This document shows, piece after piece, positions 46,916 through 64,000 of a stretch of DNA of 64,000 nucleotides. The DNA lies in the NCBI GenBank assembly GCA_031409275.1, contig JANNXA010000036.1:32001-96000 (forward strand), given 5' to 3'. A program made the translations under genes and the position numbers. This DNA comes from Planctomycetota bacterium. Its GTDB lineage: Bacteria > Planctomycetota > B15-G4 > SIAN01. Each line of letters begins with the position of its first letter. The first letter of the stretch is position 1. A model generated the notes under the pieces. It did no database searches, was not told where the DNA came from, and saw only the letters and a list, made by a program, of their open reading frames with translations.

Positions 46916-48433
46916 GTGCTGATGCGACCGTCCGCATGGGGAGTCGAGCTCACGGGTGGCGCCGTGCGTGCCGTCAGGGTGCAGCGACGCGGCCAGAAAT
47001 TCGCGATCGTCGACGTCGTCGATCAACCCGTGAGCCCGCCCGGCGAGGGCGCCGAGGAGCTCTCCGCCCATCTGCCAGACGCCGTCGGGCGCGCCCTCAC
47101 CGACTTGCTTCAAGCGCGCCGCGGCACGCTCGGGGATGCGATCTTCGTCGCGCTGCCGGTCTTCGGGGCGAAACACGGTCGGGTCGACGTGCCGGTCACC
47201 GATCCAGCGCGGGCGCCGGGCCTGCTCGAATTCGAACTGCATCAGGCGATCGCGGTCGACCTCGACGGCTGGATCGTTCGCACCACGCCGCCGCGGCGAC
47301 GCGAATCGCAGACGACCTCGTGCGACTACTTCGCCCAGCGCCGCACGCTCGTGTCGAGTTTCGTCGCGGACTTGCGTCGATTCGGGCTGCCGCTCGATGG
47401 ACTGATGCCGGGCCCACTCGCGCTTGCCCGCTACGTCGACGCCGAGTGGCCGCATCCGGGGCGACGGTTGGCGATCGAGTGTCAGCGCACGCGAACGGAT
47501 CTGCTCGTCCTCGACGGGGAACGGGACCGCCACTGGCGCTCGCTTCCGTTCGGCTGCGGGACGCTGGCCGATCTACCGGTGGGAGCCGCGAGTCGCGAGC
47601 GCGACGCGACGCGCACTGCGACGCAACTCGTCCGTGAACTGCGCGAGGCCCATGCAACGTGGTTCGGGCCGCACGACGGCAGAACCCTCGATCGCGTCAT
47701 CTTGCTGGGCGAAGGCACGCGACACGAAGAGCTGCGCCGCGCGCTCGAGCGCGAGCTCGGGCAACCGATCGTCACTCCTCACTTGCCGCGCCGCTTCAGC
47801 GTGAGTTCCCGCGCCGCGCCGCATCACCCGCTGCAATTCGGAACCGCGCTCGGTCTCGCGATGGCGGCGCTGTCGACCGCGCCCGAACCGTGGTCGCTGC
47901 TCCCAGCGTCGCGAACGCGAAGTGTCGCACGCACGCTGCCGGCCTGGAGCGCGGCGCTATTCGTGATCGCGATCGGATTGCTGGCCACCGGAACGCTGGC
48001 GCAGCGCGAGCGGACGACGCTGCGCACGCAACTCGCCGAAATCCAGAAGAAGACCGACTTCGGTGCGCACACGGACTGGGCCGCCGCACTCGCGACGGCG
48101 GAGCGCGCCACCGAGGAGACACGCGCGTTGATCGCTGAGGCGGCGCTCGTCCGCCGCCGCTTGCCGTTCCCTGGCGCGCTGTTGAAGGCGATGTCCGACC
48201 CGGCGATCTTCTTCCGGCTCATCGACTGCGAGCTGGTGCCAGGCGACTCCGCCGACAGCGCGCGGCTGGTTTTCGAAGTCGACGAGGGTCTCGTCGGAGC
48301 GATCGCCTCGATCCGAGCGTTCCTGGCGGAAAAGGCCGCCCTCTCCGTGACCTCGGTCGAGGAGCAGCGCAGCGATGACCGCGTCCTGCGCTTGACGATC
48401 GTTGCCGCGATGACGCACGGGAGCTCGTCATGA
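46916..48433 (+). CDS. PilM-like actin-fold protein fused to a PilN-like TM/periplasmic part (GspL-like layout)
   Basis: WGVELTGGAVRAV, RSLPFG, RVILLGEG, FGTALGLA, then a TM helix and coiled coil. Confidence 0.6.
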   Translation: MLMRPSAWGVELTGGAVRAVRVQRRGQKFAIVDVVDQPVSPPGEGAEELSAHLPDAVGRALTDLLQARRGTLGDAIFVALPVFGAKHGRVDVPVTDPARAPGLLEFELHQAIAVDLDGWIVRTTPPRRRESQTTSCDYFAQRRTLVSSFVADLRRFGLPLDGLMPGPLALARYVDAEWPHPGRRLAIECQRTRTDLLVLDGERDRHWRSLPFGCGTLADLPVGAASRERDATRTATQLVRELREAHATWFGPHDGRTLDRVILLGEGTRHEELRRALERELGQPIVTPHLPRRFSVSSRAAPHHPLQFGTALGLAMAALSTAPEPWSLLPASRTRSVARTLPAWSAALFVIAIGLLATGTLAQRERTTLRTQLAEIQKKTDFGAHTDWAAALATAERATEETRALIAEAALVRRRLPFPGALLKAMSDPAIFFRLIDCELVPGDSADSARLVFEVDEGLVGAIASIRAFLAEKAALSVTSVEEQRSDDRVLRLTIVAAMTHGSSS

Positions 48434-49233
48434 GAGCGCTCCTGTTCGTCATCGCGCTCGCGACGCTCGGCTGGGCGGGCGCCGATTTCTGGCACAAGAC
48501 GCGACCGATGCTGGCGGAACTGCCCGACCTGCGCGACCGAGTCAGCGCGCAGCTCACGGACGGCATCGGGCGCGCGCGCGCACTCGGGACGTCGCCGCCA
48601 CGCGCAAGCGAGGTCGAGGCGGCGCGACGTGCGGCTGCGGACTGCCTCGCCGAGACCGCCGCGCTGGCGAATCGCTGGTACTCGGGCGCACGGAGCGGCT
48701 CCGACTACCTCCAGCCGCGAGCGATGCGGCCGAATGGCGAAACCGGCGCCGCACTGCGTCGGCGGCTCGAAGAGCTGCTGCTCTCGCTGCCGGTCGACTT
48801 GAAGAAGCTCCCCGCCTCGACGCCGATTCGACTCGGCCTGCTGACGCCGTCGTTGACTCGATCGCTCGACCTTGCCGCACCGGAGTTCGAGGATCAGGTC
48901 GAGCGCGCCGTCGTCGCCAGCTTCCTTGCGGACACCTTGCGCAGCGCGACCGCGATCGCAATCGACGACGTCAGCGCGATTCGCAACGGCGACGGTCAAC
49001 TCGAACTGCGGTTGCGCGCGACGGGATCGCTCGACGACGTGGTCGCGCTTGGAGACGCGCTCGTGGCCGCGACCGACGCCGTCCCGCCTCGTCGCCTCAT
49101 GCAGTACCACCTGCGCTGCCTGGAGCAGGCGGAATGGAGTTCGAAGAGCGCCGACCTCGCTTCGCCCCCGCTGCAACTCGAGATGGCCATCGCCTTCTGC
49201 TTTCCTTCGACAGTCGGGGAGGGCGCGCGATGA
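48430..49233 (+). CDS. N-anchored periplasmic protein, in the PilO position
   Basis: N-terminal TM, helical stretch, beta-rich C-terminus (LELRLRATGSLDDV); ATGA overlaps on both sides; PilO call is positional only. Confidence 0.45.
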   Translation: MRALLFVIALATLGWAGADFWHKTRPMLAELPDLRDRVSAQLTDGIGRARALGTSPPRASEVEAARRAAADCLAETAALANRWYSGARSGSDYLQPRAMRPNGETGAALRRRLEELLLSLPVDLKKLPASTPIRLGLLTPSLTRSLDLAAPEFEDQVERAVVASFLADTLRSATAIAIDDVSAIRNGDGQLELRLRATGSLDDVVALGDALVAATDAVPPRRLMQYHLRCLEQAEWSSKSADLASPPLQLEMAIAFCFPSTVGEGAR

Positions 49234-50327
49234 AGCTCGGTGACACGAACGGAACCGGAACGAGTCGGTCGCAGGCGGCGCAGGCACGCTTCGTCGGGCC
49301 GCTGTTGTTGACAGCGTTTCTGGGCGCAGGTACGGTTCCCGCCCTGCTTTTCTGGTTCCAGCAGGCGAGGGAGCGGGAGTTTCGCGGCCTCCAAGGGGAG
49401 CTCGACCTGCAGCTTCGGAGCGGAACGACGGAACGCCGCGAAACGCTGCCGACCCGAGTGTTGGACGAGCGCGAAGCGCCGACTCAGTTCCAGCTTCCGG
49501 AGCGCAGTTCACTCCACTTCCGCAGCGAGCTCGCCTTTTCTGCCGCGCAGATCGAGTCGTTCCGCGCCAAGCGTTCACGCGAAGGAGAATTCGAGCGCGC
49601 GCTGAATCCTCCGACTTCGCTGGCGGCGACCGTTCGTTCGGGGGCGATCGAGCTTTCGTGGGAGCCGCCAGTCGATCTCGACCAGGTTCGGGATCGGCTG
49701 CAGGGCCAGCCGTTACTGCGTTTGGGGTTCCGGGTATACCGCTGGCGCGAGGGTGATGAGCCGAAGCTGCTCACCACGTTCGAAGGCGGCAAGACAGCAT
49801 TTCAGGACCGCGACCTGCCTCTTTGGCGGGAGCGGTTCTTCTACTGTGTGGCGACGGTGCTCGAAGGCACGATCGGCGAACTGCCGACCCTCATCGAAAG
49901 CAAGCGCTCCTCGGTGATCACGGCTGACACTCTCGAGCAGTTCACCCTGCGGGTCCTCGATGGCGAGGCGGACCATGTCCGCTGCGCGCTCGAGGCCTCG
50001 CTTGACGGACGGCGCCACGAACTGACCTTTGACGTAGCGGTCGGCCATCCGATCGTTCCGCCGCCCGCGGCCGACCTCGACGCCGAGGAGGCCGTCCGCC
50101 TCGACACCGGACTCACCGTGGAGTCGGCGCGGTGGATCGACGGTACGCTGTCCGTCTTGCGACAACGCCCTGAGTTCTTGCCGGACGGACGGCGCAAGCT
50201 CGATCCGGCCAGCGGTGCTCCAACGTTTCGGTCCGAGTCGGGCAGTGTGCCGACGCGAACTCTCGAAGTGACCTGCCGCGATCGTTCCGGTGCAACCCGG
50301 ACCTTCACATCGGCTGCCCCGAACTGA
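49230..50327 (+). CDS. Bitopic protein with a fibronectin-III-like domain
   Basis: TM near the N-terminus; LNPPTSLAA..IELSWEPP..GFRVYRW..FQD..FFYCVAT. Confidence 0.6.
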   Translation: MKLGDTNGTGTSRSQAAQARFVGPLLLTAFLGAGTVPALLFWFQQAREREFRGLQGELDLQLRSGTTERRETLPTRVLDEREAPTQFQLPERSSLHFRSELAFSAAQIESFRAKRSREGEFERALNPPTSLAATVRSGAIELSWEPPVDLDQVRDRLQGQPLLRLGFRVYRWREGDEPKLLTTFEGGKTAFQDRDLPLWRERFFYCVATVLEGTIGELPTLIESKRSSVITADTLEQFTLRVLDGEADHVRCALEASLDGRRHELTFDVAVGHPIVPPPAADLDAEEAVRLDTGLTVESARWIDGTLSVLRQRPEFLPDGRRKLDPASGAPTFRSESGSVPTRTLEVTCRDRSGATRTFTSAAPN

Positions 50328-50382
50328 TAGACCTATAGGGATTCGGCCGTTCCTCGGTGCGAGGAACCTGGAGATCCAGAAG

Positions 50383-52968
50383 ATGCGAACGAGCCCACCT
50401 CTCCTCGGCGCGCTGACGGCGGCTTCGCTGTCCGTGATCGGCGGTTGCTCCACGCACCCCGACGGAGCGACGTCGTCACCTGCCGGTGGCAACGACGCCA
50501 CCGCTCCGGTTGCCACGAACGTCGCGCCGAATGTGGCCGCGGCCACACAAGACGCCGGCAGCCTGCGCGCGCAGAAAGTCGCGACGCTCGTCCAGGGCTA
50601 TCTCGACAGCGCGAAGACGGCGCTTGCTCGCGGCGACGCCGAGGCGGCGCACGCGGCGCTGCTCGACGCGTATGAGATCGACCCCGGAAACCTCGAGGTC
50701 AAGAACCTCCTCGACTCGGTCGGCGTGCAGCTTGGCAAGCGGCCGAGCACCGTGGGCGATGTGGCTCGCGCGGCGGCCGACCAGGATCGCGTGCGACGCG
50801 CCCAGGCTCGACTCGAAGTCGAGAACAAGCTCGTCGAATCGGATCAGCGCCGAGTGCAGGGCGACTTCGATGCCGCCATCCGCTCGCTGCAAGACGCCGA
50901 ACTGATCCTCCGCTGGAATCCCTACCTCGGTGGCACCACCGACATGGGAGTGACCGAAGAGTCGCTGCGCCAGCGCATCGCGGAACTGACGGCCGCGCGC
51001 GCCACGCAGGAGCGTGATGCGACGGCCGAGCGCGAGCAGCGTGCGCTCGCCGAAAAGGCGGCTCGCGAGGCCGAAGAGCGCGAACGCGCGCAGAACCTCG
51101 TCAACCGCTTCTTGCGCCAGGCCAACGACGCCTTCTATGCCGAGCGCTACAAGGAAGCCGCCGCCTTCTGCGACCAGGTTCTCGACCTCCAGCCGCAGCA
51201 CGTCGAGGCGACCGAGCTCAAGCTCACCGCGCAGCAAGCGTGGCACTCCGCCGAGCAGGATCAGTATCGAACCGCCTACAAGGACCACTGGCGCGAGATC
51301 TTCGACCAGATCGATCTCATGAACACGCCGGTCACCGAGGACATCTCGTTCCCGGCCAAGGCCGACTGGGAGAAGATCCGCAAGCAGGGCCCGATCCACT
51401 TCCGCCTTCAGGGTGAGCAGATCAAGCCCGAAGATCAGCGGATCTGGGACATCCTCAACAACACGCGCGTCGAGCTGAACTTCAACGAGACCAAGCTGCC
51501 GGACGCTGTCGAGTGGCTCCACGTCAACACCGGCATCAACTTCATCATCGATCAGCCGGTCCTTGACGCTGGCACCGACACCGGCGCCGCCTTGACCGTC
51601 GCCTCGATCACCGCCAAGGGCGCGCTCGAGCTGATCTCGACGGTCTATGGCGTGCTCTACGTCGTGCGCGACGGGGTGATCACGATCATCACCAAAGAGA
51701 CGGCGAAGGGTGGCGAGTACATCGAGATCTACGACGTGCGCGACCTCATCAACAAGGTCGCCTCGTTCCCCTCCACCGACTTCAACCTCTCTCCGTCGGG
51801 TGCGGTCGACGAGGAACCGCCGGAAGCGCCCGAGCCCACTCCGTTCGTCATCGAGGGCGATGCGCTGCGCGACCTGATCACGAACAACATCGACCCGTCG
51901 ACGTGGGAAGGCAACACCAACGTCACGATGAACCTGCAGCAGTCGGGCGCTCTCGTCGTGCGCCAGACGGCCGACGTCCACGCCAAGATCGATCAGCTGC
52001 TCTCCGACCTTCGCGCCAACGCCCGCACGATGGTCAACATCCAGACGCGCTTCCTCTCGCTCGAAGATCGCTTCCTCGAGGACATCGGCGTCGACTTCCG
52101 CGGGCTGAATGGGCAGAACGGCTCGTCCTCGACCGCCTCGGTGCCGAACATCGTCCTCGACGATCAGGGCACGCCGGGATCGGGCGGCGTCGGCTCGCCC
52201 GGCGCTCCGAGTGGCATCGGCACCGGCAACGATGCAGGTGCCTTCTTCACCGAGAACGGCGGCGACTTCAATGCACGCGGCCGGCTCGAGAATCTCTACG
52301 ACCTGTCGCTCGGCGATGAGAGCTTCCGCGCCTCGGGTGGCGCCTCTATCGAGTTCACCTACTTCGACGACACCATCGCCGAAGCGATCCTGCGAGCGGT
52401 CACCAAGACGACCCAGTCGGAAGTGGTCCATGCTCCGAACCTGACCGTGTTCAACGGCCAGCGCGCCCACATCAACGTCCTGAACCACATCAGCTACGTG
52501 CAGGATTTCGAGGCAGAGATCGCGCAGGGCGCCGTGATCGCCGACCCGATCGTGAAGGTCCTCCGCGATGGCCCGACGCTCGACGTGCGTCCGGTCGTCT
52601 CCTCTGACAAGCGCTTCGTGACCATGGAAGTTCGGCCGACGCTGCTCGACCTCGTCGAGCCGATCGCGACCTTCCGTACCTCGCTCGCAGTCGGCAACGA
52701 AGTCGAGCTGCAGCTGCCGATCCTCAAGATCCAGCGCCTGCGCACGACGGTGACGATCCCCGACGGTGCGACGCTCATGCTCGGCGGCATGAAGTCGCTG
52801 GTCGACAAGCGGCTCGACTCGGGGATCCCGTTCCTGAAGGACATTCCGCTGGTCTCGTTCTTCGCTAGCCGCAAGGGCACCGAGAAGAGCAAGACGAAGG
52901 TCATGATCTTGGTGCGTGCCAAGATCATCATCCCGGAGGAGTACGAGCCTTCGACCTCGCGCAACTGA
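50383..52968 (+). CDS. Secretin (GspD/PilQ superfamily), lipoprotein with a helical/TPR N-terminal extension
   Basis: Lipobox-like IGGC; YDVRDL and LVVRQT (N3-like); APNLTVFNGQRA, LDVRPVVS, TTVTIPDGATLMLGG, GIPFLKDIP. Confidence 0.88.
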   Translation: MRTSPPLLGALTAASLSVIGGCSTHPDGATSSPAGGNDATAPVATNVAPNVAAATQDAGSLRAQKVATLVQGYLDSAKTALARGDAEAAHAALLDAYEIDPGNLEVKNLLDSVGVQLGKRPSTVGDVARAAADQDRVRRAQARLEVENKLVESDQRRVQGDFDAAIRSLQDAELILRWNPYLGGTTDMGVTEESLRQRIAELTAARATQERDATAEREQRALAEKAAREAEERERAQNLVNRFLRQANDAFYAERYKEAAAFCDQVLDLQPQHVEATELKLTAQQAWHSAEQDQYRTAYKDHWREIFDQIDLMNTPVTEDISFPAKADWEKIRKQGPIHFRLQGEQIKPEDQRIWDILNNTRVELNFNETKLPDAVEWLHVNTGINFIIDQPVLDAGTDTGAALTVASITAKGALELISTVYGVLYVVRDGVITIITKETAKGGEYIEIYDVRDLINKVASFPSTDFNLSPSGAVDEEPPEAPEPTPFVIEGDALRDLITNNIDPSTWEGNTNVTMNLQQSGALVVRQTADVHAKIDQLLSDLRANARTMVNIQTRFLSLEDRFLEDIGVDFRGLNGQNGSSSTASVPNIVLDDQGTPGSGGVGSPGAPSGIGTGNDAGAFFTENGGDFNARGRLENLYDLSLGDESFRASGGASIEFTYFDDTIAEAILRAVTKTTQSEVVHAPNLTVFNGQRAHINVLNHISYVQDFEAEIAQGAVIADPIVKVLRDGPTLDVRPVVSSDKRFVTMEVRPTLLDLVEPIATFRTSLAVGNEVELQLPILKIQRLRTTVTIPDGATLMLGGMKSLVDKRLDSGIPFLKDIPLVSFFASRKGTEKSKTKVMILVRAKIIIPEEYEPSTSRN

Positions 52969-53134
52969 GACCCTGACGCCTCCTGCGCAAGGCGGGCCGA
53001 ACCTGCCTCCCCCACCCGCGTTCTGAAGGAGCGTGGGTCCTTCTCCGGTCCAAGGCTGGAATTGGCAGAAGCTGCCGGCCGCCCGGGAGAGACAGACCCT
53101 CTCCCGGGCGGTCTCGTTCATTGGAGCCTCTCAC

Positions 53135-56029
53135 ATGTCGAATCGACTCTGGAAGTCGTGGTGGGCGTTCGGCTTGCTGGCACTTGCGACGCCCGCTCGC
53201 GCGCAATCCTGGGAACTCCAGGATGAGATCGGGTTCGCCAAGAACATGGCGCGCTATCGCCTGTTCGACCTCGCAACCGAGCACATCCAGAACATCGAGA
53301 AGGGCAACCTCACGGCAGAGGACCGCAACGCGTGCCTCTACGCACGCGCCTTCATCGAGAAGCTCGGCGGCGACTTCGACACGACGCCTGAGGGACGTCT
53401 GTCACTGCTCAAGTCCGCGATCGGCCACTACAACGAGTTCCTCGGCAAGATCGGCGCCGACAACAAGAACGGCGATGACGCGCGCTCCGAAGCGGCCGCC
53501 TGCCAGCGCAAACTCGGTGCGCTCTATGCAGAGCTCGCCGCAGCCGGCACGGATGCCGAAGCGAACAAGAAGGAAGCGGAGACCGCGTTCCGGGCCGCCG
53601 TTCAACAGCTGAACGCGTTGCACAACGCTCGCCTGAAGAAGTACGAGGCGATGCCGGAGGAAGAGGAAGACCCCAACGCCGATCCGAACGAGCCGACCCC
53701 TCGCTCTGCGAAGGATGAGGCGAAGATCGACGCCTTCGAGCCGGTCTACGAGCTCGCCGCCACCTACTACGACTGGGCGCAGCTCTATCCCGAGAACGAC
53801 CTCAATCGGCAGGACTACCTGAAGAAGTCGCTCGAGCAGACCACAACCTACACGTGGGAACTCGGCGCCGAGACCATCCGCAGCTACGACGTGAACTTCT
53901 ACGCCGGGCTCGCGAACATCGGATTGAACCAGCTCGATGACGGACTCGCGATGCTCGAGTACGTCGTCAGCGCCGAGACCGGCGTGCCCGCGGTCATCGA
54001 GAACAACCCCGACCTGCCTCCCGACGTCGTCGGAGAGCTCACGCGGATGGTCGAGAAGACCTACCGCGAACTCGCGCAGATCTACAACAAGCAGACCAAG
54101 TACGCTGAAACCGACAAGCTGCAGGCGCGCGTCGAGGAGTACTACAAGAAGTTCTCCGCGCGCGGCGCCCAGCGGACCAACGTAGGCGAACTGTTCCTGC
54201 TCGAGGTCGGAGTCGCGCGCTTCAAGGCGGGCAACCCCAACGGCATGAAGCTGCTGGAGGAGATCGCCAAGCGCAACCCCGGCAACGAGGTCGGCCAGAA
54301 GGCCGGCGAGCTCATGGCCGACGCAATCCGGAGCAACGCGGGGGTCGGCGGAGCGGTCGGCAAAGTCCCGCCGAGTACCTGGATCACGACGGCCGATGCC
54401 GCCCGCAACCAGAACAAGATGTTGGACGCGATCGACAGCTACCACAACGCGATCGGCTCGCTCGAACTCGTCACCGATGCCAAGGAGCGCACCAACCTCG
54501 AGATCGCCTGCTGGTCCGACATCGGGACCTGCTACCGCAGCATGTCGCGCCACGTCGAGGCTTCCTTCGCGTTCCAGGAGGGCCTCACGCGCTGCGCCGG
54601 AGCGACCGGAATCGATGAGGAGACGGTCCAGCAGGTTGGCATCGCCTGGTACAACACGCTCGTCTCGCGCTTCAAGGAGACGAAGGACGATGCCGACAAG
54701 CGCGCGAAGGACAGCGCGCTCCGCAAGCTCGCCAGCGACTTCAAGGTCAAGAACACCGAGTACCTGGTCGCCAAGGATGAGTTCGAACAGGCCCGCGTGC
54801 TCCCCGCCGAGAAGAAGGACGAACGGCTGAAGGCGTTCGCCGAATGCGCGCAGAAGCTCGGCGCGATCAAGGACAGCGACTCGAACTACGATCGCGCGCG
54901 CATCCTGCTCGCGCGCTGCCACGGGGAACAGGGCGAAGTCGACCCCAAGAAGTGGGAGACGGCTCTCACGACGCTCGACTCGTTCGACAAGTACGCGAAG
55001 GAGAACGAGACTCCGGCCGACAAGGCGCGCATCGTCAATCGCGAAGTCAGCCGCACCGAGTCGACCTACTACCGCTCGGAGTACCTCCTCGACCTGAAGC
55101 GCCACGCCGAGGTGCTCGACGTCCTGAAGAGCTTCGAGAAGGACTTCCCTGCGCAGAAGGACTTCTACGCGGAGGTCAACTACCGCCGCCTGATGTCGCT
55201 GCTGGCGCTGAATCGTTTCCCCGAGGCCGAGTCGCTCTTCATCGACGTGACCAAGCAGATCGAGTCAGGCGCCCTCAAGCCCTGGCGCGACTCGGCCGGC
55301 TACTGGCTGGCGCGCGGCTACCTTGACGCTGGCGAGAAGGAAGCCGACGCGGCCAAGCAAGGCGCGCTGCTCGCCAAGGGTGCCGAGCTGATGACGGCCT
55401 ACTGCCGCGCCACGGCGTACCAGAGCTACAACAACCTGCTCTCCGCCGCTGAGACGTGGGCCCGCATCAAGAACTGGGCGAAGGCGGAGGAGACCTATCG
55501 CAAGCTGATCGACGTCTTCGGCAAGGAAGCGCAGTACAAGGAGAACATCGATCTCCGCGTCCGGCGCACGCTCGCCGACGTGCTGATGAATCAGCGCAAG
55601 TTCTCCGACGCCGCGCCGCTGTTCCGGGAGCTCGAGGTTCGCTTCGCCAAGGACCCGGCGCTGCTCGGACAGGCCGCGCGCTGCTATGGCGGCTGGGTCG
55701 AGATCGTCGACCGCAAGGCGGTCGAGGTGCCGGGCGCGGGCGACTACAAGCGCGCCGTCGACCTCTGGAAGATCCTGATGGAGAAGGGCTTCAAGAAAGA
55801 GGACGAGAAGGTCACCCCTGCCTGGTTCGACGCGAAGTACCTCTCGATCTATGCGCGCTACCGCGCGAAGGAACTCGACCCTGCGTACCTCCAGGAGGCG
55901 CAGGCGCTGATCGGCAACTTCAAGAACAACGTCTGGGACTTCCTGAAGGACGAGCCTGACTTCTTGACCCGCATCGGCGGCGAAGAGGGCAAGCGCCGCT
56001 GGGAGTACCTGTTCGAGCGCCTCCAGTAG
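53135..56029 (+). CDS. Large exported TPR/alpha-solenoid protein
   Basis: Signal peptide ending PARA; repeated TPR-like helices; GGAG upstream of the ATG. Confidence 0.8.
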   Translation: MSNRLWKSWWAFGLLALATPARAQSWELQDEIGFAKNMARYRLFDLATEHIQNIEKGNLTAEDRNACLYARAFIEKLGGDFDTTPEGRLSLLKSAIGHYNEFLGKIGADNKNGDDARSEAAACQRKLGALYAELAAAGTDAEANKKEAETAFRAAVQQLNALHNARLKKYEAMPEEEEDPNADPNEPTPRSAKDEAKIDAFEPVYELAATYYDWAQLYPENDLNRQDYLKKSLEQTTTYTWELGAETIRSYDVNFYAGLANIGLNQLDDGLAMLEYVVSAETGVPAVIENNPDLPPDVVGELTRMVEKTYRELAQIYNKQTKYAETDKLQARVEEYYKKFSARGAQRTNVGELFLLEVGVARFKAGNPNGMKLLEEIAKRNPGNEVGQKAGELMADAIRSNAGVGGAVGKVPPSTWITTADAARNQNKMLDAIDSYHNAIGSLELVTDAKERTNLEIACWSDIGTCYRSMSRHVEASFAFQEGLTRCAGATGIDEETVQQVGIAWYNTLVSRFKETKDDADKRAKDSALRKLASDFKVKNTEYLVAKDEFEQARVLPAEKKDERLKAFAECAQKLGAIKDSDSNYDRARILLARCHGEQGEVDPKKWETALTTLDSFDKYAKENETPADKARIVNREVSRTESTYYRSEYLLDLKRHAEVLDVLKSFEKDFPAQKDFYAEVNYRRLMSLLALNRFPEAESLFIDVTKQIESGALKPWRDSAGYWLARGYLDAGEKEADAAKQGALLAKGAELMTAYCRATAYQSYNNLLSAAETWARIKNWAKAEETYRKLIDVFGKEAQYKENIDLRVRRTLADVLMNQRKFSDAAPLFRELEVRFAKDPALLGQAARCYGGWVEIVDRKAVEVPGAGDYKRAVDLWKILMEKGFKKEDEKVTPAWFDAKYLSIYARYRAKELDPAYLQEAQALIGNFKNNVWDFLKDEPDFLTRIGGEEGKRRWEYLFERLQ

Positions 56030-56070
56030 AGACCTTTCGCCTTCCGGCTCGGCGGTGCGCCGAACCGGGA

Positions 56071-56098
56071 TTGACCGACCCCTCGACCGACCTAAGAT
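56071..56098 (+). promoter_or_regulatory. Putative sigma70-type promoter for the TPR-exbB-exbD-exbD unit
   Basis: TTGACC (56071-76), 16 nt, TAAGAT (56093-98). Confidence 0.5.
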
Positions 56099-56177
56099 CC
56101 CGCGCTTCGAATCCGCCAGTTGCGACCTAGCCCGCGCAGCCCCGGCGTGTCCATCGAAGCGCTCGCGAGGTGCATTC

Positions 56178-57284
56178 GTGAGGAACAGCTCTCTCTTCTT
56201 GGCGCTCGTGGCCGCGGTGGCGGCCCCGTCGGCACGTGCGGATGAAATCCTCCAGAAGAGCGCCAAGAACCCGTTCAAGGGAACGGTGCAGTCGGAAGAC
56301 ATCAACAAGGTCAAGTACAAGCTTGACGGCGTCGCGCAGGTGCAGGAGATCGACTCCGCGCTGGTCGCCGACATCACCTACGACGACGCGCCGGAGGCCT
56401 TCACGAAGGGCAAAGAGTTGCTGAAGAAAGGCGACGCGGAGAACGCGGCCAACAGCTTCCGCCTCGCGCTGAAGTCGAAGACGAAGAACAACTGGATCAA
56501 CGTCTACGGCAACTACCAGCTCGGCGTCGCGCTGCAGATGTGGGGCGCGAAAGACGCCACCAAGCTCAAGGAAGCAGCGACAGTCTTCGCTCAGCTGTTG
56601 AAGGACTCGCCCGAGTGCCGCTTCATGCCGGACGCACTGAAGCGCGGCGCCGATGCGCTCGCCGCGAGCAAGGATGCCGCCGGTGCCGCCGCTCTCTACG
56701 ATCGCCTCGCGGAGGTCGCGCAGCAGAAGAAGCTCGGCATCCTCTGGGAAGCTGAGGCGCGAATCCGCAAGGCGGACGCCTACGTGACCGCCGGGATGAC
56801 CAAGGAGGCGGAAGCCGCCTACGCCGCGGCCGGAAGCTTCGCCGACTCGAACGCCGCGACGCAAAAGGACGAGCCGACGAAGCGCTTGCTGCTGGCGATC
56901 GTCGGACGCGCCCAGCTCTCCCAGGGTGGCGCGCTGCTGCGAAACAAGAAGTTCGCCGAAGCGCGCCAGTTCTTCGAGAAGGTGGCGATGGGCGCCAACG
57001 CTCAGTCTGACGTCATCGCCGCGGCGCTCAACGGCGTCGGCGAAGTCCTGCTCGAAGAGGGCAAGCCCAAAGAGGCGCTGGAGCGGTTCGCTCGGGTTCG
57101 CGTCCAGTACTACCTCGCCCGGGAAGAGGCGGCCCGCGCGACGTACTTCCTCGGTAAGACCTGCCTCGCCCTCAAAGATGCCGAGCCGAACGGCAAGAAG
57201 AAGGCGGCCGATTACTTCGCGGAAGTGGTCGAACGCTACGGCGACACCCCGTGGGCCGATCGCGCCCGCGCGGAGATCAAGTGA
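56178..57284 (+). CDS. Exported TPR protein (CpoB/BamD-like C-terminus)
   Basis: GTG after GAGG; signal ending SARA-DEI; small beta-rich N-domain, TPRs, VVERYGDTPWA. Confidence 0.78.
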   Translation: MRNSSLFLALVAAVAAPSARADEILQKSAKNPFKGTVQSEDINKVKYKLDGVAQVQEIDSALVADITYDDAPEAFTKGKELLKKGDAENAANSFRLALKSKTKNNWINVYGNYQLGVALQMWGAKDATKLKEAATVFAQLLKDSPECRFMPDALKRGADALAASKDAAGAAALYDRLAEVAQQKKLGILWEAEARIRKADAYVTAGMTKEAEAAYAAAGSFADSNAATQKDEPTKRLLLAIVGRAQLSQGGALLRNKKFAEARQFFEKVAMGANAQSDVIAAALNGVGEVLLEEGKPKEALERFARVRVQYYLAREEAARATYFLGKTCLALKDAEPNGKKKAADYFAEVVERYGDTPWADRARAEIK

Positions 57285-57387
57285 CCGCCGCCACTCGCGG
57301 CGCTATTCCACCACACGGTTCCACGCCGTCCCGTTGACGGCGCCTTCCAGGTCGGTTCGCGAACAGCAAGCTCAGGAGCACTTGTCC

Positions 57388-58113
57388 ATGACCCTCAAGA
57401 AGCTCGGTTTCACGATGCTCACGCTCGCTGCGGCATTCGCAGTCTCGGGCGTCGCCTTCGCTCAGGATGCTGCCAAGCCGCCTGACGTCTCCTTCTCCAT
57501 CTCCGAGATCCTGCGTGACGGTGGCTCGATCGGCCACTTCATCCTCGTCGTCTCGGTGATCGCACTTGGCGTGTCGATCGACTTCGCAGTCAACATCCGG
57601 CGCGTGAAGATGTGCCCGCCCGAAATCGTTGAGGAGATCGAGGCGCTCTTCGAGGCCGGCGACTATCAGGAAGCGGTCGACCTCTGCGAGGCCGAGCCGA
57701 CCATGTTCACCAATGTCGTCGCCGCAGGGCTCTCGAAGGTCAATCACGACTTTGCGACCATCGAGTCGGCACTCGGCCAAGCGATCGAAGAGGAGTCGGT
57801 CAAGCTGCACACGAAGGTCGGCTGGCTCTCCTTCATCTGCTCGGCCTCGACCCTGCTTGGCCTGCTCGGCACCATCCAAGGCATGATCGTCGCGTTCAAG
57901 ACGATTGCCGCCACGAAGGGCCAGGCCGACCCGTCGATGCTCTCGGGCGGTATCTCCGCCGCGCTCATCACGACGCTGTACGGTCTCTGCATCGCGATCC
58001 CGGTCTCGTTCTCGTTCGTCATCTTCCGCAACCGCGTGATCGCGACGACGATGGAGATCGGCACGATCATCGAAGAGCTCTTCGAGCGCTTCCGAACCAA
58101 GGCCGCTGCTTGA
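57388..58113 (+). CDS. MotA/TolQ/ExbB proton-channel protein
   Basis: LLGLLGTIQGMIVAF, GGISAALITTLYGLCIAIP; AGGAG upstream. Confidence 0.93.
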   Translation: MTLKKLGFTMLTLAAAFAVSGVAFAQDAAKPPDVSFSISEILRDGGSIGHFILVVSVIALGVSIDFAVNIRRVKMCPPEIVEEIEALFEAGDYQEAVDLCEAEPTMFTNVVAAGLSKVNHDFATIESALGQAIEEESVKLHTKVGWLSFICSASTLLGLLGTIQGMIVAFKTIAATKGQADPSMLSGGISAALITTLYGLCIAIPVSFSFVIFRNRVIATTMEIGTIIEELFERFRTKAAA

Positions 58114-58182
58114 CGTTCCGCACGTCGGCCGGAAACAAGTTCGGGGTCCTCGATCGGTCCTTGCTGAATCGGAGCTAGCGCC

Positions 58183-58665
58183 ATGAAGAAAGGCAGCATG
58201 CCGTCGATGTCGTTCGAACTCGACATGACGCCGATGATCGACTGCACGTTCAACTTGCTGATCTTCTTCATCCTGGTGGTCGACCTCGGCCAGCAGGAGC
58301 TCGAAAAGGTCACCCTGCCGCGTGCTTCTCAGTTCCAGAAGGACGACAAGAACGAGAAGGGGCGCAAGGTCGTCAATCTTGACATTGAAGGGACCATCAA
58401 GGTCAAGCGCCGTCCCTTCGCGCTCGAGCAGCTGCGCACCGATTTGAAGATCTGGTCGGACATGTACCCGCGTGAAGAGAACGGCCTCTGCAGCAAGTCG
58501 ATCCTCATCCGGACCGACCGCGGTACCGAGATGAAGCACGTCCAGAAAATCATGCAACTGTGCGGCGAGAAGGGGTTGCAGATCTACAAGATCGAACTCG
58601 CTTGCTCAGAGGACGCCACCGGCTTCCACGCCGTGGAGACGCCAGGCAAGAAAGGGCTGGAGTAA
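58183..58665 (+). CDS. ExbD/TolR-family protein 1
   Basis: LDMTPMIDCTFNLLIFF, VTLPRA, ILIRTDR, VQKIMQ. Confidence 0.92.
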   Translation: MKKGSMPSMSFELDMTPMIDCTFNLLIFFILVVDLGQQELEKVTLPRASQFQKDDKNEKGRKVVNLDIEGTIKVKRRPFALEQLRTDLKIWSDMYPREENGLCSKSILIRTDRGTEMKHVQKIMQLCGEKGLQIYKIELACSEDATGFHAVETPGKKGLE

Positions 58666-58668
58666 GCC

Positions 58669-59145
58669 ATGGGCAGCAAGAACAAGGAAATGGCGGAGTC
58701 GATCTTCACGCTCGACATGACCCCGATGATCGATTGCACGTTCAACCTGCTGATCTTTTTCCTCTGCAACATCAACTTCAAGCTGCTCGAAGGGAAGATC
58801 CCGGCGTACCTGCCGAAGGACGTCGGCGTGAACAACTCGCCGATCACCAAGGAGCTCGAGAAGATCGAGATCCGGATCACGCGCAGCGCGTCGCCGAACG
58901 TCAAGGACAAGAACTGGTCCTGGCACGAGAACCAGATCTCGATCAACGTGCAGGGCAAGCGGATGGCGGGTCTCCAGGATTTCTACACCACGATCAAGCG
59001 GGTGCATGAAGCCAACAAGGAGGCGAAGGCCACGCTCTATCCGGGCAAGCAGACGCTCTACATCGACAGCGTGAAGGTGATCAACGAGTGCCTGCGGGCG
59101 AACTTCGTGGACATCACGTTCGCCGGCACGCCGATGGACAGCTGA
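58669..59145 (+). CDS. ExbD/TolR-family protein 2
   Basis: LDMTPMIDCTFNLLIFF, EGKIPAYLP, VKVINEC..ITF. Confidence 0.9.
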   Translation: MGSKNKEMAESIFTLDMTPMIDCTFNLLIFFLCNINFKLLEGKIPAYLPKDVGVNNSPITKELEKIEIRITRSASPNVKDKNWSWHENQISINVQGKRMAGLQDFYTTIKRVHEANKEAKATLYPGKQTLYIDSVKVINECLRANFVDITFAGTPMDS

Positions 59146-59446
59146 ACCGACGCCGATGAACCGGCGCTCATGAGTGGAGCTGCGCGACCGCGCGAAGGCT
59201 CTTCGAACCACGGGACGCAGCGAACGAACTGAACTGGATACCGACCGAGGGGCTGGTGCTCGATGCGCCAGCCCCTCGTGTTTTCGCCCGCAGGCGGCGC
59301 GACCCCCGGCGAAACGAACCTCTCGAACGCGGCCCGAGGCTAGGCTCAGCCTCGAGGGCAGACCCCATCGGACGTTGGAGCGAGCGATCAAACGGATCGA
59401 ACTCGTACTGGAGCGGCGCCCCGCCTCGAAGGCGCCGGCCAATGCC

Positions 59447-61462
59447 GTGCGGGAAGGCGTCGAGTCGACCCTTCGTTCATGCGCATCGCTCCTCCTGGTC
59501 GGCACCGTCCTCTTCGGTTGCGACGCGCGCAGCAACGCCGACCGCCCACGCCACCTGCTGCTCGTCTCGATCGACACGATGCGCGCCGATGCCATCGTCC
59601 CGGACTCGCCGTGCCGCGCGAGCACGCCGACGCTCGACGAACTCGCCACCCGCGGTCGGCGCTTCGAGAACGTCTGGTCGCATGTCCCGCTCACGCTGCC
59701 TTCGCACGCAACGCTCTTCACCGGCCGGCTGCCGCAAGAACTCGGGCTTCACGACAACGCCCCGTTCCCGCTCCGCGGCGACGTCGACACGTTGGCGACG
59801 CTGCTCCACGACGCTGGATTCGCGACGGACGCCGTGATCGGCGGACAACCGCTCGGGAACGGCTGCGGTCTGGAACGCGGATTCGAGCAGTACGACGTCC
59901 CAGCGCGTGGCAACGCTGGCGCGACGCTGTTTGTGGAGCGCAATGCGGTGAAAGTCACCGACCGCGCTCTCGCCGCGTGGCAGCGGCCGGCAACGTCCGC
60001 TCGCGGTCGCTTCCTCTTCGTCCACTACTTCGACGCGCACCACCCCTACCTGCCGCCGGCGAACTGCCTGCGCGGCGACCCAGACGACCCCGCCGCCCGC
60101 TACCGCGGCGAGATCACCTTTGTCGACCGTGAATTCTCCCGACTGCTCGCGCGCATCCGCGCCAGTGGCGAGCGCTGCCTCGTGGTCGTCACCTCCGACC
60201 ACGGAGAGGGGTTGGGCGACGGGGGCGAGTCGACCCACGGCTTCCAGCTACTGCCATCGACGCTGCGCGTGCCCCTGATCGTCGCCGAGATCGAGGGGGC
60301 GCGCACGAGCGCCCCGGCGCCGCTCGCCACCGCGCAAGCCACTCGATTGATCGGACTCGTCGATCTGCTCCCGACGATGTTGCGACTGCTTGAAGTCGCC
60401 GCTCCCGCAACCCTCGATGCGATCGCGGGTCGTGCGCTGCAGGAGCCCGAAGTCGAGCCGCGCGCTCAGTACGTCGAGTCGCTCTCCGCGGCGCTCCAGT
60501 TCGGCTGGGCGCAGCAGTCGGGGGTCAGGGGTAGCGGCGCGTTCCTGCTCCATCTCGGCGCCGATCCGCCCCCCACCGTCGGCGACTTGCGCGTGCTTTC
60601 ATTCGACGAGAGCGACGAGCGTTGCCTGGTGGATGCCAGCCGCGGCGATCCGAGCGTGGCCGAGCTCGCGGCGTGGCGCGAGCGCTTCGATGAGACGCGG
60701 ACGCGCAAACTGCCGCGCTCGAGCGAGCGCGCGAGTCAGCGCGCGCTCCAGTCGCTCGGCTACCTCCCCGGTTCGAGCGACCGCAGTCGACACGATCTAC
60801 TGCCGCTGACCGAGAATGCCCTTCGTCCGTCGCCGCTGGCACGCCGCGACGAGATCGAGCAGTTGCTGCATGCTGTCGCGCGACTGGAGGCGGGCGAAGC
60901 ACTCGGAGCCGCTTCGAGCCTCTCGAAGCTCCTCAAAGCCGATCCCGAGCAGCTCGCCGCACGTTTTTTTCGCGCACGTGCGCGCCTCGCGCTCGAAGAG
61001 CTCGATCAAGGTCGGTCCGGCGCCTTCGCACGCGAGGCGGTCGCCGACCTCGCGCGCGTCGTCGCTACCGCACCGGACTATCCAGGCGCGGCTCTCCTTC
61101 ACGCCAAAGCGCTCGCTCTCGCGGGCGACTTCGATGCCGCACGCGCCGCGCTCACCGACCGGTCGGCCGTCGCGGCGGAACTCGATTCGGAGGCCGCCGA
61201 TCGGGAGGAACTCCTTGGAAGCCTGCTGCTCGAGCGAGCACGCGGCGGGCGCGCGAATCCGTGGTTCGATGCCGAGCAGGGGTTCGAACACCTGCTCCGC
61301 GCCATCGAGCTCGATCCCGAGCGCCTGGCGCTCGCGCGAAAGCTCGATTCCCAGCTCGCGGCTTTGGCGCGAACGCCCGACGCTCCGCCATGGGTCGCTG
61401 TCGCGCGTGAACGGTTCCGCCGCCGCCGCGGTCGCCGTTACCGCGCCCGTCCCGCCCGCTAG
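59447..61462 (+). CDS. Sulfatase-like hydrolase with C-terminal TPRs, probable lipoprotein (start uncertain; ORF open from 59174)
   Basis: LFGC lipobox-like; SIDTMRAD, PLTLPSHATLFTG, HYFDAHHPY, TSDHGEG, LQSLGY. Confidence 0.85.
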   Translation: MREGVESTLRSCASLLLVGTVLFGCDARSNADRPRHLLLVSIDTMRADAIVPDSPCRASTPTLDELATRGRRFENVWSHVPLTLPSHATLFTGRLPQELGLHDNAPFPLRGDVDTLATLLHDAGFATDAVIGGQPLGNGCGLERGFEQYDVPARGNAGATLFVERNAVKVTDRALAAWQRPATSARGRFLFVHYFDAHHPYLPPANCLRGDPDDPAARYRGEITFVDREFSRLLARIRASGERCLVVVTSDHGEGLGDGGESTHGFQLLPSTLRVPLIVAEIEGARTSAPAPLATAQATRLIGLVDLLPTMLRLLEVAAPATLDAIAGRALQEPEVEPRAQYVESLSAALQFGWAQQSGVRGSGAFLLHLGADPPPTVGDLRVLSFDESDERCLVDASRGDPSVAELAAWRERFDETRTRKLPRSSERASQRALQSLGYLPGSSDRSRHDLLPLTENALRPSPLARRDEIEQLLHAVARLEAGEALGAASSLSKLLKADPEQLAARFFRARARLALEELDQGRSGAFAREAVADLARVVATAPDYPGAALLHAKALALAGDFDAARAALTDRSAVAAELDSEAADREELLGSLLLERARGGRANPWFDAEQGFEHLLRAIELDPERLALARKLDSQLAALARTPDAPPWVAVARERFRRRRGRRYRARPAR

Positions 61463-61585
61463 TGCATCCCCGTTCCGCTCTCCACGTCCACCGCCGGATG
61501 CACGGCTAGGCAGCATTGCCGCCAGCAGCTTTGGGCGCACTGCTAAACCCGTACACGAGAACGAGTTAGGTCCAGGTTTTTGGCG

Positions 61586-61614
61586 TTGACCACTCACAAG
61601 GGTCGGCCTAACCT
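61586..61614 (+). promoter_or_regulatory. Putative sigma70-type promoter for the second secretin
   Basis: TTGACC (61586-91), 17 nt, TAACCT (61609-14). Confidence 0.5.
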
Positions 61615-61870
61615 ACCGCGCTCTTTCCCGGGCGCCGGCAGGGCGTTTTGCTCGGGACCGCGAGGGACCACCGCGAGGGATTTCAGGGAATTGGCCGACG
61701 GCTGGGAGCGCGCACTGCTTCGCGCGCGCTCACGATTCACACCAGCGTGGCTTGCTCCTTGGGTCTTTCGCCTGCGACCTTCGCGGGCGCTCTTCACGAG
61801 CGCTTCTGCCGCCAGGGAAACCACGAACGCCTCGGACGGGATGGCCTCCGCCAGTCGGGAGACGAACAGA

Positions 61871-64000
61871 ATGTTGAGCTCCGCTCGCACGACGCAGCGC
61901 TTGCTGTACGCAACCCTAGCCGCCACGGCGCTTGGCGCTTGCTCTTCGTCGGATGAGTCCACCGTTTCACCGACGGCTGCGACGTCGAGCACCGCGATGC
62001 CCGACGCCAGCGTCGGCGCGGCGTCGACGGCCGCAGCGCCTCAAGCCGGTGCGCAGTCGCTCGCTCAGCAGAAGCAGCAGTTGATGCTGACTTCGGCGAT
62101 GGACAACGCTCGCGCCCTGCGCGAGAGCGGCGACCTCGCCGGCGCACGCCGTCAACTCGAACAGGCTCTCTCGATCGAGCCGGGCAACGCCGAAGCGACC
62201 GCTCAGTACTTCGAAGTCCTCGAGCTGCTCGGTGAGCGGCCGGGTGACATCGGCACGGCACGCCAGCAAGCCGAGGATCGCTCCGCAGTCTCCAAGCAGC
62301 AGTTGAAGCTCGAGGCGGAGGAGTACCACCGGGTCGGTCAGGATGCTCGCAGCCGGCGCGAGTTCGACAGCGCGATCCGCTGGTTCGAACGCGTCCAGCA
62401 GTCGATCCGCTGGTCGACGCTCGACGTCGAATGGGGCGACCTCGCCACTCGCAACGACGAGGCGCTCGCTGCGGCTCGTCGTGAACGTGACGAGGCGATC
62501 CAGAGCGACCGTGAAACGAAGCTGAAGGAAGCGGTCCAGCAGATCCGCGGCGATGAAGAGGCTGAGCGCGCGCGCCACATGAACCGCGTCGCGGGCCTCC
62601 TCGAGAGCGCGAACTACAAGTTCGAAGCCGCGGACTACGTCGGCGCGATGGAACTGTGCGATCAGGTCCTCACCATCGAGCCGAGCAACACGACGGCTCA
62701 TGAGCTCAAGCGTGAAGCGAACTCCGGCCGACGCTCCAAGCGCAGCGCCGAGTTCGCCAAGCACCGCAGCGAAGCATTCCGCAAGTTCAAGTCGGACATC
62801 GAAGAGCTGCGCATCCCGTTTTCCGACGGGCTGACCGCGGCCGATCCTGACTACTGGGCTCGTGTCACGGCGCGCACGGCCACTGGGGCCGGTGGCGCCG
62901 ACGCCGCCGCGGTCGAAGATCAGCGAATCAAGGAACAGCTCAAGTCGGTGCGAGTGCCGATCGTCGATTTCACCGACGCGGACCTCGACGCCGTCTGCAC
63001 GCAGCTCTCCAACTGGTCGGGTCTCACGATTCGGGCGACCGAGACGGTTCGCTCGGAGGTCGAGTCGAACTCGACCCTGATCCAGCTCACCAACCTCACC
63101 AACCTCTCGCTCGACTCGCTGCTGACCATCGTCACCAAGCGCCTCGGCGAGAAGTTCGCGTGGACGGTGACCAACGGCATCGTCCAGATCACGACGCTCG
63201 AGGACGCGTTCGGCGCGACCAAGATCCGGACCCACGCGATCCAGGACCTCACCTTCGGCCGGACCGACTTCAAGGGGCCGGAGATCAACAAGATCGCGTT
63301 GCCCGGCGAATACGGTGACGACGCCGAGACCTCGGTCTTCGCGGCCGACCTCGACAAGGTCATCCAGATCACGCCAGAAGACATCGTCACGTTGGTGAAG
63401 GAGAACGTGGCGCGCGAGACCTGGGAGCTCGGCGACAAGAAGTTCTCGATCGAACCCGCCGCCAGCAATCAGATCCTCGTGATCCACACCGCCGAGGTGC
63501 AGGACGAGATCGAAGCGTTCCTGAACGACCTGCGTCGCTTCACGACCACCGTCGTCCAGATCGAGAGCCGCTTCGTCGAGGTCACCGACGCCTTCATCCA
63601 GGAAATGGGTGCGGACTTCCGCGGCCTCGGTGGCGTCTTCGGCTCGAGCGTCACCCTCGATGACACGACGTCGGCGGGCGAGGACATCGCCAGCCGCGGC
63701 CTCGACAACCTCGGCACCGGGTCGACCGGCAGCTCGGCGCCCAGCGCCGGCATCTTCTTCAATGACAACTCGGACGGCGACATCCGCGGCCGCACCGAGA
63801 ACTACTTCGACTCGCCGCTCGGCTCGATCCTCTCCACCACCGGTGGCGGCTCGTTCCAGTTCGGCCTGCTCGATGACACGCAGTTCAACCTCGTCGTGAC
63901 CGCCGTCGACAAGTCGGTGAACGCCGTCGAGGTGATGGCCCCCGAACTCACCGTCTTCAACACCGAGCGCGCCTACGTCACGGTGCTGAACGAGGTCTCC
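61871..64000 (+). CDS. Second lipoprotein secretin, 5' part (runs off window; absent from the ORF track)
   Basis: Own translation MLSSARTTQRLLYATLAATALGACSSS; same frame later gives ILVIHTAEVQDEIEAFLNDLRR, VQIESRFVEV, APELTVFNTERAYVTVLNEVS. Confidence 0.85.
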   Translation, partial: MLSSARTTQRLLYATLAATALGACSSSDESTVSPTAATSSTAMPDASVGAASTAAAPQAGAQSLAQQKQQLMLTSAMDNARALRESGDLAGARRQLEQALSIEPGNAEATAQYFEVLELLGERPGDIGTARQQAEDRSAVSKQQLKLEAEEYHRVGQDARSRREFDSAIRWFERVQQSIRWSTLDVEWGDLATRNDEALAAARRERDEAIQSDRETKLKEAVQQIRGDEEAERARHMNRVAGLLESANYKFEAADYVGAMELCDQVLTIEPSNTTAHELKREANSGRRSKRSAEFAKHRSEAFRKFKSDIEELRIPFSDGLTAADPDYWARVTARTATGAGGADAAAVEDQRIKEQLKSVRVPIVDFTDADLDAVCTQLSNWSGLTIRATETVRSEVESNSTLIQLTNLTNLSLDSLLTIVTKRLGEKFAWTVTNGIVQITTLEDAFGATKIRTHAIQDLTFGRTDFKGPEINKIALPGEYGDDAETSVFAADLDKVIQITPEDIVTLVKENVARETWELGDKKFSIEPAASNQILVIHTAEVQDEIEAFLNDLRRFTTTVVQIESRFVEVTDAFIQEMGADFRGLGGVFGSSVTLDDTTSAGEDIASRGLDNLGTGSTGSSAPSAGIFFNDNSDGDIRGRTENYFDSPLGSILSTTGGGSFQFGLLDDTQFNLVVTAVDKSVNAVEVMAPELTVFNTERAYVTVLNEVS

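Follow-up and report, generated by a model that had tools for sequence, protein, structure and literature searches.

A planctomycete gene cluster with an ExbB-ExbD motor set between two TPR-secretin genes

Mucin transport in Akkermansia muciniphila is mediated by two loci, MUL1 and MUL2 (PMC13174399; also bioRxiv 2024.03.27.586211 and PMC12570417). MUL1 is said to resemble Sus, is separate from MUL2 and has a synteny that is absent from aquatic Akkermansiaceae (PMC13174399). The genes Amuc_1098-1102 comprise MUL2 and the secretin PilQ/Amuc_1098, a lipoprotein of 907 residues with N-terminal TPR (PMC4960237). Planctomycetota-Verrucomicrobiota-Chlamydiota (PVC) bacteria also carry many TPR-ExbB-ExbD-ExbD motors without a known target (PMC12204202), and in Pseudomonas aeruginosa the ExbBD-type motor PocAB-TonB3 is needed for pilus production or placement, a contact between TonB3 and PilQ's N0 domain having been hypothesised (PMC5285504). 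The present analysis concerns a cluster of eleven genes of a Planctomycetota bacterium which begins at position 46916 of the window, the term used here for the whole stretch of 64,000 nucleotides analysed (G000:C36:32001-96000, G000 being the source genome, 5.6 Mb and 93% complete). The cluster resembles MUL2 in its layout and protein folds; by the curated cut-offs it does not belong to that system. The reading favoured here, tentatively and at somewhat less than an even chance, is that it encodes the outer part of a pilus-type machine driven by ATPases, together with an accessory proton motor that would open or assemble the secretins, probably for polymer uptake.

The initial annotation of the window had named eleven co-oriented genes, including two lipoprotein secretins, TPR proteins and ExbB-ExbD-ExbD, and all eleven were confirmed. 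They are given here with the evidence for each and with one conserved upstream neighbour.

46916..48433, plus strand: PilM-PilN fusion, 505 residues, Amuc_1101-related (family alignment, profiles)
48430..49233, plus strand: PilO/Amuc_1100-like bitopic protein, 267 residues (predicted fold)
49230..50327, plus strand: bitopic FN3 protein, 365 residues (predicted structure)
50383..52968, plus strand: secretin A, lipoprotein of 861 residues with N-terminal TPR helices (PF00263)
53135..56029, plus strand: TPR1, exported TPR protein of 964 residues (TPR matches; signal peptide read from the sequence)
56178..57284, plus strand: TPR2, exported TPR protein of 368 residues, weakly CpoB/YbgF-like (TIGR02795)
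57388..58113, plus strand: ExbB/TolQ-type motor subunit, 241 residues (PF01618)
58183..58665, plus strand: ExbD1, 160 residues (PF02472)
58669..59145, plus strand: ExbD2, 158 residues (PF02472)
59447..61462, plus strand: sulfatase-fold (alkaline-phosphatase superfamily) protein with C-terminal TPR (PF00884; start uncertain, frame open from 59174)
61871..64000, plus strand: secretin B, lipoprotein of 868 residues, continuing 477 bases past the window
46004..46831, plus strand: uracil-DNA glycosylase, conserved upstream neighbour (PF03167, synteny)

The motor genes, from TPR1 to ExbD2, are located between the two secretin genes. The secretin B gene runs to G000:C36:96477 (64477 in window numbering), and after it comes a HAD hydrolase gene; the glycosylase upstream is probably not part of the machine. 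Above the Pfam cut-offs were Secretin (86.8 bits for A, 79.8 for B), MotA_ExbB (87.7), ExbD (73.7 and 46.6) and Sulfatase (96), and TPR repeats were found in the 964- and 368-residue proteins and at the N-termini of both secretins. Several genes had been described as joined by ATGA overlaps; two such overlaps are present (48430-48433 and 49230-49233) and the remaining junctions are gaps. The internal promoters that had also been proposed are unsupported, because the promoter scan gave a single sigma-70-like site where 0.9 were expected by chance. The terminator scan of the cluster was likewise at chance level.

The PilM-PilN fusion was borne out at family level. The Amuc_1101 family NF045709, matched more often than any other, was found with 34 of 40 homologues (best E 2.5e-79) and PilM by 19 of the 40, and the PDB profile matches of the family were to PilM (E 4.9e-49) and, weakly, to PilN (E 0.004). 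Comparison with the genome's own PilM gave an hhalign probability of 99.8%. The protein has a single transmembrane helix at residues 344-362. Taken alone, the fusion encoded in the window has diverged too far to give any one strong match (TIGR01175, E 0.0011), and the best Amuc_1101 family score among the homologues, 267.7 bits, is below the cut-off of 650.

The second scaffold protein was predicted with a pLDDT of 91. Its best fold match was Amuc_1100 (Foldseek E 8e-4; VIA Z 10.5 with 174 aligned residues, rmsd 6.1), followed by PilO (Z 8.0), the order being the same in two fold searches. Half of its Atlas matches (15/30) lay in clusters containing the Amuc_1100 family, which makes up 30% of the members in the best such cluster. 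Searches with profiles of the family found no specific match in Pfam, NCBIfam or PDB sequences, and hhalign gave 2% against the genome's canonical PilO and 30% against a paralogue on contig C51. The third protein occupies the PilP/Amuc_1099 position. In its model (pLDDT 86) a membrane helix and a long helix are followed by an FN3 domain and a tail rich in beta structure, and no family match was found among 39 members. The fold comparison bore chiefly on the FN3 domain at residues 121-240, which matched known domains with Z about 12, rmsd 2-3 and 87-98 aligned residues. An FN3-domain protein thus appears to stand in place of PilP.

The order of a PilM-type fusion, an Amuc_1100-fold protein, a third membrane protein and a TPR-secretin of about 900 residues is shared with Amuc_1098-1102, and both window secretins resemble Amuc_1098 in being lipoproteins with N-terminal TPR. 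Unlike the Akkermansia genes, the window cluster scores under the Amuc family cut-offs (268 against 650 for the fusion; 75-85 bits against 750 for the secretins, secretin A giving 85), contains two secretins and has a motor module inside it. The pilin Amuc_1102 (NF042424) was found in none of five genomes, in a search without a positive control. MUL1 holds TPR and ExbB/ExbD genes, which would make it similar to the window motor in gene content. The type IVa pilus run pilMNOPQ also combines PilM, PilN and PilO folds with a secretin, and its ATPases are encoded elsewhere, as those of the window cluster probably are; the window differs in its fused PilM-PilN, its FN3 protein and its lipoprotein secretins with built-in TPRs.

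Secretins A and B carry lipobox cysteines (Cys22 and Cys24 respectively) and are 31% identical to each other. Both fall under the cut-off of the PilQ model TIGR02515, and a PDB sequence search with secretin A gave weak secretin-domain matches only. A quick tree was built from 67 secretin domains. Its 63 TPR-secretins grouped in a single clade (support 99) that excluded the other four secretins of the genome, PilQ and GspD among them. Secretins A and B were separate orthologous groups in this tree. Lineage-specific tandem duplications of TPR-secretins, separate in the tree from the A/B duplication, were seen in G053 (L068, three copies), G048 (L069) and G046 (L070).

The proton motor looks functional, as judged from its sequence, the proton-path residues being intact. 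In ExbB, T162 was conserved in 36/37 homologues and T195, T196 and P205 in 37/37, the position of the TolQ Glu being held by a variable small residue. The transmembrane Asp was invariant in both ExbD proteins (Asp20 of ExbD1 in 34/34, Asp22 of ExbD2 in 39/39). In ExbD2 a stretch F-K-x-L-E-G-K-L-x3-L-P-K-D-x-G is conserved after the membrane helix. A lone second ExbD2, 50% identical, is encoded at G000:C27:165308-165784 (L124) directly after nuoB-C-D-I-like genes; such a lone copy occurs in many members of the order in varying contexts, and in G044 (L101) an exbB-exbD-exbD set runs into complex I-like genes. Other motor modules have three to five exbD genes per exbB (L065, L067, L104, L105). 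A quick tree of ExbB placed the linked copies of the order in one clade (99) and left the distant copies open, so that, for copies outside the order, orthology is judged by gene context.

The best NCBIfam match of TPR1 was YbgF, in 9/36 members, and its Atlas look-alikes were Planctomycetota TPR clusters. TPR2 matched TIGR02795 under the cut-off (E 1.7e-11) and TPR proteins among the PDB profiles. The protein called a sulfatase-like enzyme in the initial annotation does have the sulfatase fold, but a Thr-type motif, T-L-P-[SA]-H, replaces in 19/19 homologues the formylglycine sulfatase signature C/S-x-P-x-R. Family f4 and most distant lineages lack its gene at the locus.

The TPR-tolQ-tolR-tolR modules described in PVC bacteria share with the window one or more TPR genes, one tolQ-like gene, a heterologous tolR pair and the conserved Asp and Thr ring (PMC12204202). 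They differ in having TonB-like transducers headed by a vWA domain; the window locus has neither a transducer gene nor an adjacent arm with the His motif, and vWA arms were seen in three loci. The word secretin does not occur in the main text of that paper. From the Ton and Tol-Pal systems the window differs in having no TonB_C/TolA gene with a receptor or TolB/Pal. The Pseudomonas PocA-PocB-TonB3 system likewise brings an ExbBD-type motor to bear on a type IVa pilus, with a canonical TonB; the part of its description consulted mentions no TPR pair or double ExbD (PMC5285504). Each half of the cluster thus has a published counterpart. No description of the secretin-motor pairing was found in a search of the open-access literature.

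The pairing was followed across genomes by a search with secretin A, which matched 61/61 genomes; the surrounding regions were fetched and annotated with profiles. Among 41 relatives of the same order, 31 had the motor and a secretin in one locus, six were motor-less and four were dropped (G026 and G030, cut by the ends of their contigs, and G002 and G032, whose examination was incomplete), giving linkage in 31/37 informative genomes. Among 19 other lineages two were dropped for contig breaks (G054, G057) and seven of the remaining 17 were linked (G046, G050, G052, G055, G056, G058, G059). Since kin are not independent these figures are counts and not a test. In the secretin tree the motor-less loci nest among the linked ones, which suggests that the link is old and has been broken many times. 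The best hint of a bridge between the two halves comes from TPR1 and TPR2, because the pair has been seen with either half: in the closed genome G049 TPR1-TPR2 moved together with the motor, and after loss of the motor TPR genes remain beside the secretins in G008, G009 (fused), G015 and G043 (TPR2 only). The synteny that the initial annotation had asked for exists in most of the order and in part of the other lineages, and the unlinked arrangement, which it had given as a refuting outcome, was found in 6/37 order members and 10/17 other lineages.

No ATPase, PilC, pilin or TonB gene was found in the window by Pfam and profile annotation, as had been noted at the outset. This does not hold for the genome, which has 12 secretion-ATPase matches, six secretins, four PilC/GspF genes, two TonB_C genes, two proteins of TonB architecture and pilins on C51 and elsewhere. 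Contig C49 carries a complete type IVa pilus set, and C52 and C55 carry type II secretion-like sets; all of these sets have their own secretin. The two TonB_C genes (C34, C55) adjoin TonB-dependent receptors. A further run, pilB-pilT-pilB-pilC on C29, has neither a secretin nor PilM. One close match to its PilC was present in 53/61 genomes (cut at 290 bits, a value picked by eye at a gap); at none of 19 such PilC loci was there a secretin or PilM-PilN match, and at three pilins followed. In the source genome (C29:16887-26295, L117) this run is followed by genes for a histidine kinase and a small protein, together with those for a possible DNA-binding protein and an OmpA-domain lipoprotein, and several relatives have the same tail; G016, G035 and G045 lack pilT in the run. 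The genome's other free secretin, a lipoprotein-like protein of 453 residues (G000:C27:157550-158911, L124; a tandem pair in G006), has no ATPase or scaffold nearby and is matched in 37/61 genomes, only three of them outside the order. Because this secretin is nearly confined to the order, the TPR-secretin family is left as the candidate phylum-wide partner for C29, and the simplest phylum-wide pairing would be that of the C29 module with the window scaffold and secretins.

Candidates for a TonB-like arm also occur elsewhere in the genome. In the order, the arm at the head of paralogous motor modules joins an S/A-x3-H helix through a Pro/Glu linker to a squalene-cyclase-like barrel. A tandem pair of such TonB-architecture proteins, with S-x3-H in the membrane helix, is encoded at G000:C34:98849-102251 (L148) with no motor genes adjacent; they end in the barrel and not in a vWA domain. 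Relatives of the C34 arm were found in 48/61 genomes, often also in tandem. The three bitopic proteins of the window were considered as stand-ins for TonB and rejected, the window copies having no S/A-x3-H helix; the motif was found in 0/39 FN3 members, and the 2/41 PilO-like members that match do so only outside the clean motif. Because pilus ATPases and a TonB-like arm are encoded in the same genome, the machine is probably not ATPase-free, and an ATPase-free, TonB-free form of it is unsupported.

Other genes of the source genome resemble parts of the cluster or lie near it. A TPR-ExbB-ExbD operon at G000:C47:22867-30974 (L125) is followed by a gene for a membrane protein of 1240 residues with a PD40 propeller and a prenyltransferase-type barrel. 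Window positions 43156-45810 (minus strand) are transcribed divergently from the glycosylase gene and the cluster and encode a protein of 884 residues that has a membrane part of several helices and TPRs at its C-terminus. At G000:C36:116715-120194 there is a Gly-rich exported protein of 1159 residues with an N-terminal lipoprotein-like signal, and similar proteins are encoded at C27:147584.

Several of the observations weigh against the reading given at the start, and those that concern linkage favour instead two independent envelope modules sharing an operon: an ATPase-run pilus-type secretin and scaffold, and a PVC-type motor with another target, the two being co-expressed or slow to separate. 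Free-standing motor modules of this type are common in PVC genomes (PMC12204202), and this explanation is possible, if rather unlikely. The link has been broken repeatedly, both in the six order genomes that have the secretins and no motor (G005, G007, G008, G009, G015, G037) and in the ten unlinked lineages (G042-G045, G047-G049, G051, G053, G060), and in the closed genome G049 the motor, secretin A and secretin B are 3 to 6 Mb apart. The cytoplasmic HAD gene lies beside secretin B in seven other lineages, equal to the count for the motor, so that gene-order inertia can account for part of the linkage signal. In the class of G044, probably Planctomycetia, 47 of 51 genomes sampled carry a longer form of the secretin, and in only one of these (G073) was an ExbD2-like match found within 20 kb; at the threshold used (E <= 1e-12, weaker ExbD copies not being listed) the halves are thus apart in 46/47. 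Planctomycetes import intact dextran and green fluorescent protein into the periplasm by an uncharacterised route, the uptake of dextran being fibre-associated and sensitive to carbonyl cyanide m-chlorophenylhydrazone (CCCP) (PMC5394234). Since the halves lie apart in nearly all sampled genomes of the G044 class, the organisms with shown dextran uptake are probably without the linked form. The locus itself has no carbohydrate-active enzyme or substrate-binding gene to indicate the cargo. The presence of the C34 arm does not follow that of the motor, with which it was expected to be lost, and the arm is kept in the motor-less genomes G005, G007, G008, G015 and G043. Against independence stand the position of the motor, which sits between the secretin genes and not at the edge, the TPR genes kept with the secretins in four genomes after loss of the motor, and a head-to-head pair in G073 (C63, L138), where a gene for a long-type TPR-secretin of 1742 residues and exbB-exbD-exbD lie 480 bases apart on opposite strands. 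ExbB matches in the order's six motor-less genomes reach just 31-33% identity. A paralogous TPR-TPR-exbB-exbD-exbD module is present in 7/8 motor-less genomes with A/B-type secretins (the six and G043 and G045), where it might serve the secretins in trans; such modules also occur in the linked G003, and there is none in G000.

The remaining alternatives concern what powers the secretins and in which direction. A channel in which the proton motor, acting alone, gates the secretins or draws cargo through them like a giant TonB-dependent transporter, with the PilM/N/O scaffold reduced to a strut, is unlikely. For such an ATPase-independent channel speak the locus without ATPase, PilC or pilin genes, and G013, which has the full locus while C29-type PilB and PilC were not found in it. 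The C51 cluster (C51:220000-236600, L135) likewise has no ATPases and may be what C29 really serves, which speaks for this channel too and, like G013, weighs against the reading preferred here. That cluster encodes an FHA-domain protein, a PilM-PilN fusion, a PilO-like protein, a TPR protein, several pilins and a laminin-G protein of 1685 residues, with no ATPase and no secretin. In the four closest genomes, moreover, the scaffold genes diverge faster (identity 33-70% for PilM-PilN and 28-60% for the PilO-like protein) than secretin A (58-91%), ExbB (54-88%) and the ExbDs (56-93%), but scaffold proteins commonly evolve faster than secretins in any case. G013 is the only motor-linked genome found without C29 PilB and is 11% incomplete, whereas 6/6 motor-linked distant genomes compared keep this PilB (543-690 bits). 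The PilM-PilN copies of the linked distant genomes are closer to canonical PilM, several passing the TIGR01175 cut-off, and both secretins persist in genomes without a cognate motor. A more elaborate version, in which a secretin or an A/B hetero-ring would be opened directly by the proton motor via a barrel-headed TonB-like arm and two TPR adaptors and would import intact polymers without pilus ATPases, is similarly improbable. An outward or mechanical role, in surface motility, adhesion or polymer export, is likewise unlikely. The initial annotation had pointed to the Myxococcus AglRQS motor, and the layout agrees: the Agl-Glt core complex consists of one TolQ, two TolR, TPR proteins and a TonB-like protein (PMC3169522), and secretins can be needed for slime export (PMC12475490). 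The Agl-Glt core has no secretin, though, and is by itself unlikely to drive motility (PMC3169522), the locus has no GltG-like or beta-barrel Glt gene, and no Glt-named NCBIfam family was matched by TPR1 (36 members) or TPR2, so that specific Glt homology was not found.

The tentatively preferred reading therefore remains a pilus-type outer half with an accessory motor. What stands of the hybrid machine first proposed is the motor-secretin linkage across the order and distant lineages and a motor with intact residues. From these observations and from the identities of the parts, the C29 module encoded in trans, the pilins and the C34 proteins, we infer each contact and the cargo as follows. 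The C29 module would supply the ATPases and platform to the window scaffold. The ExbB subunit with the ExbD1/ExbD2 pair may drive a C34-type arm, an assignment which is a guess because such arms do not track the motor. TPR1 and TPR2 would relay the force to the periplasmic part of the secretins, and the motor would help to open or assemble them. By analogy with Akkermansia, the cargo may be a large glycan or glycoprotein moving inward. Mucin transport by MUL1 and MUL2, the effect of PocAB-TonB3 on Pseudomonas pili and the CCCP-sensitive dextran uptake of planctomycetes lend this reading support by analogy, although CCCP also lowers ATP. As an accessory, the motor could be lost or relocated in a lineage, or perhaps give way to a paralogous module.

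The cluster names a candidate target for the PVC motors, an Amuc_1098-like secretin, and provides a short gene list together with natural deletion variants. An ATPase-free polymer importer, if true, would be without precedent as an energised secretin importer and could be a system for macromolecule uptake in PVC bacteria. If the modules are just neighbours, the analysis still maps a type IV pilus-like system that is split and phylum-wide. If the motor does act on the secretin, this would be a third class of outer-membrane target for proton-motive force, besides TonB-dependent receptors and TolB-Pal, and would suggest how the two mucin-import loci of Akkermansia cooperate.

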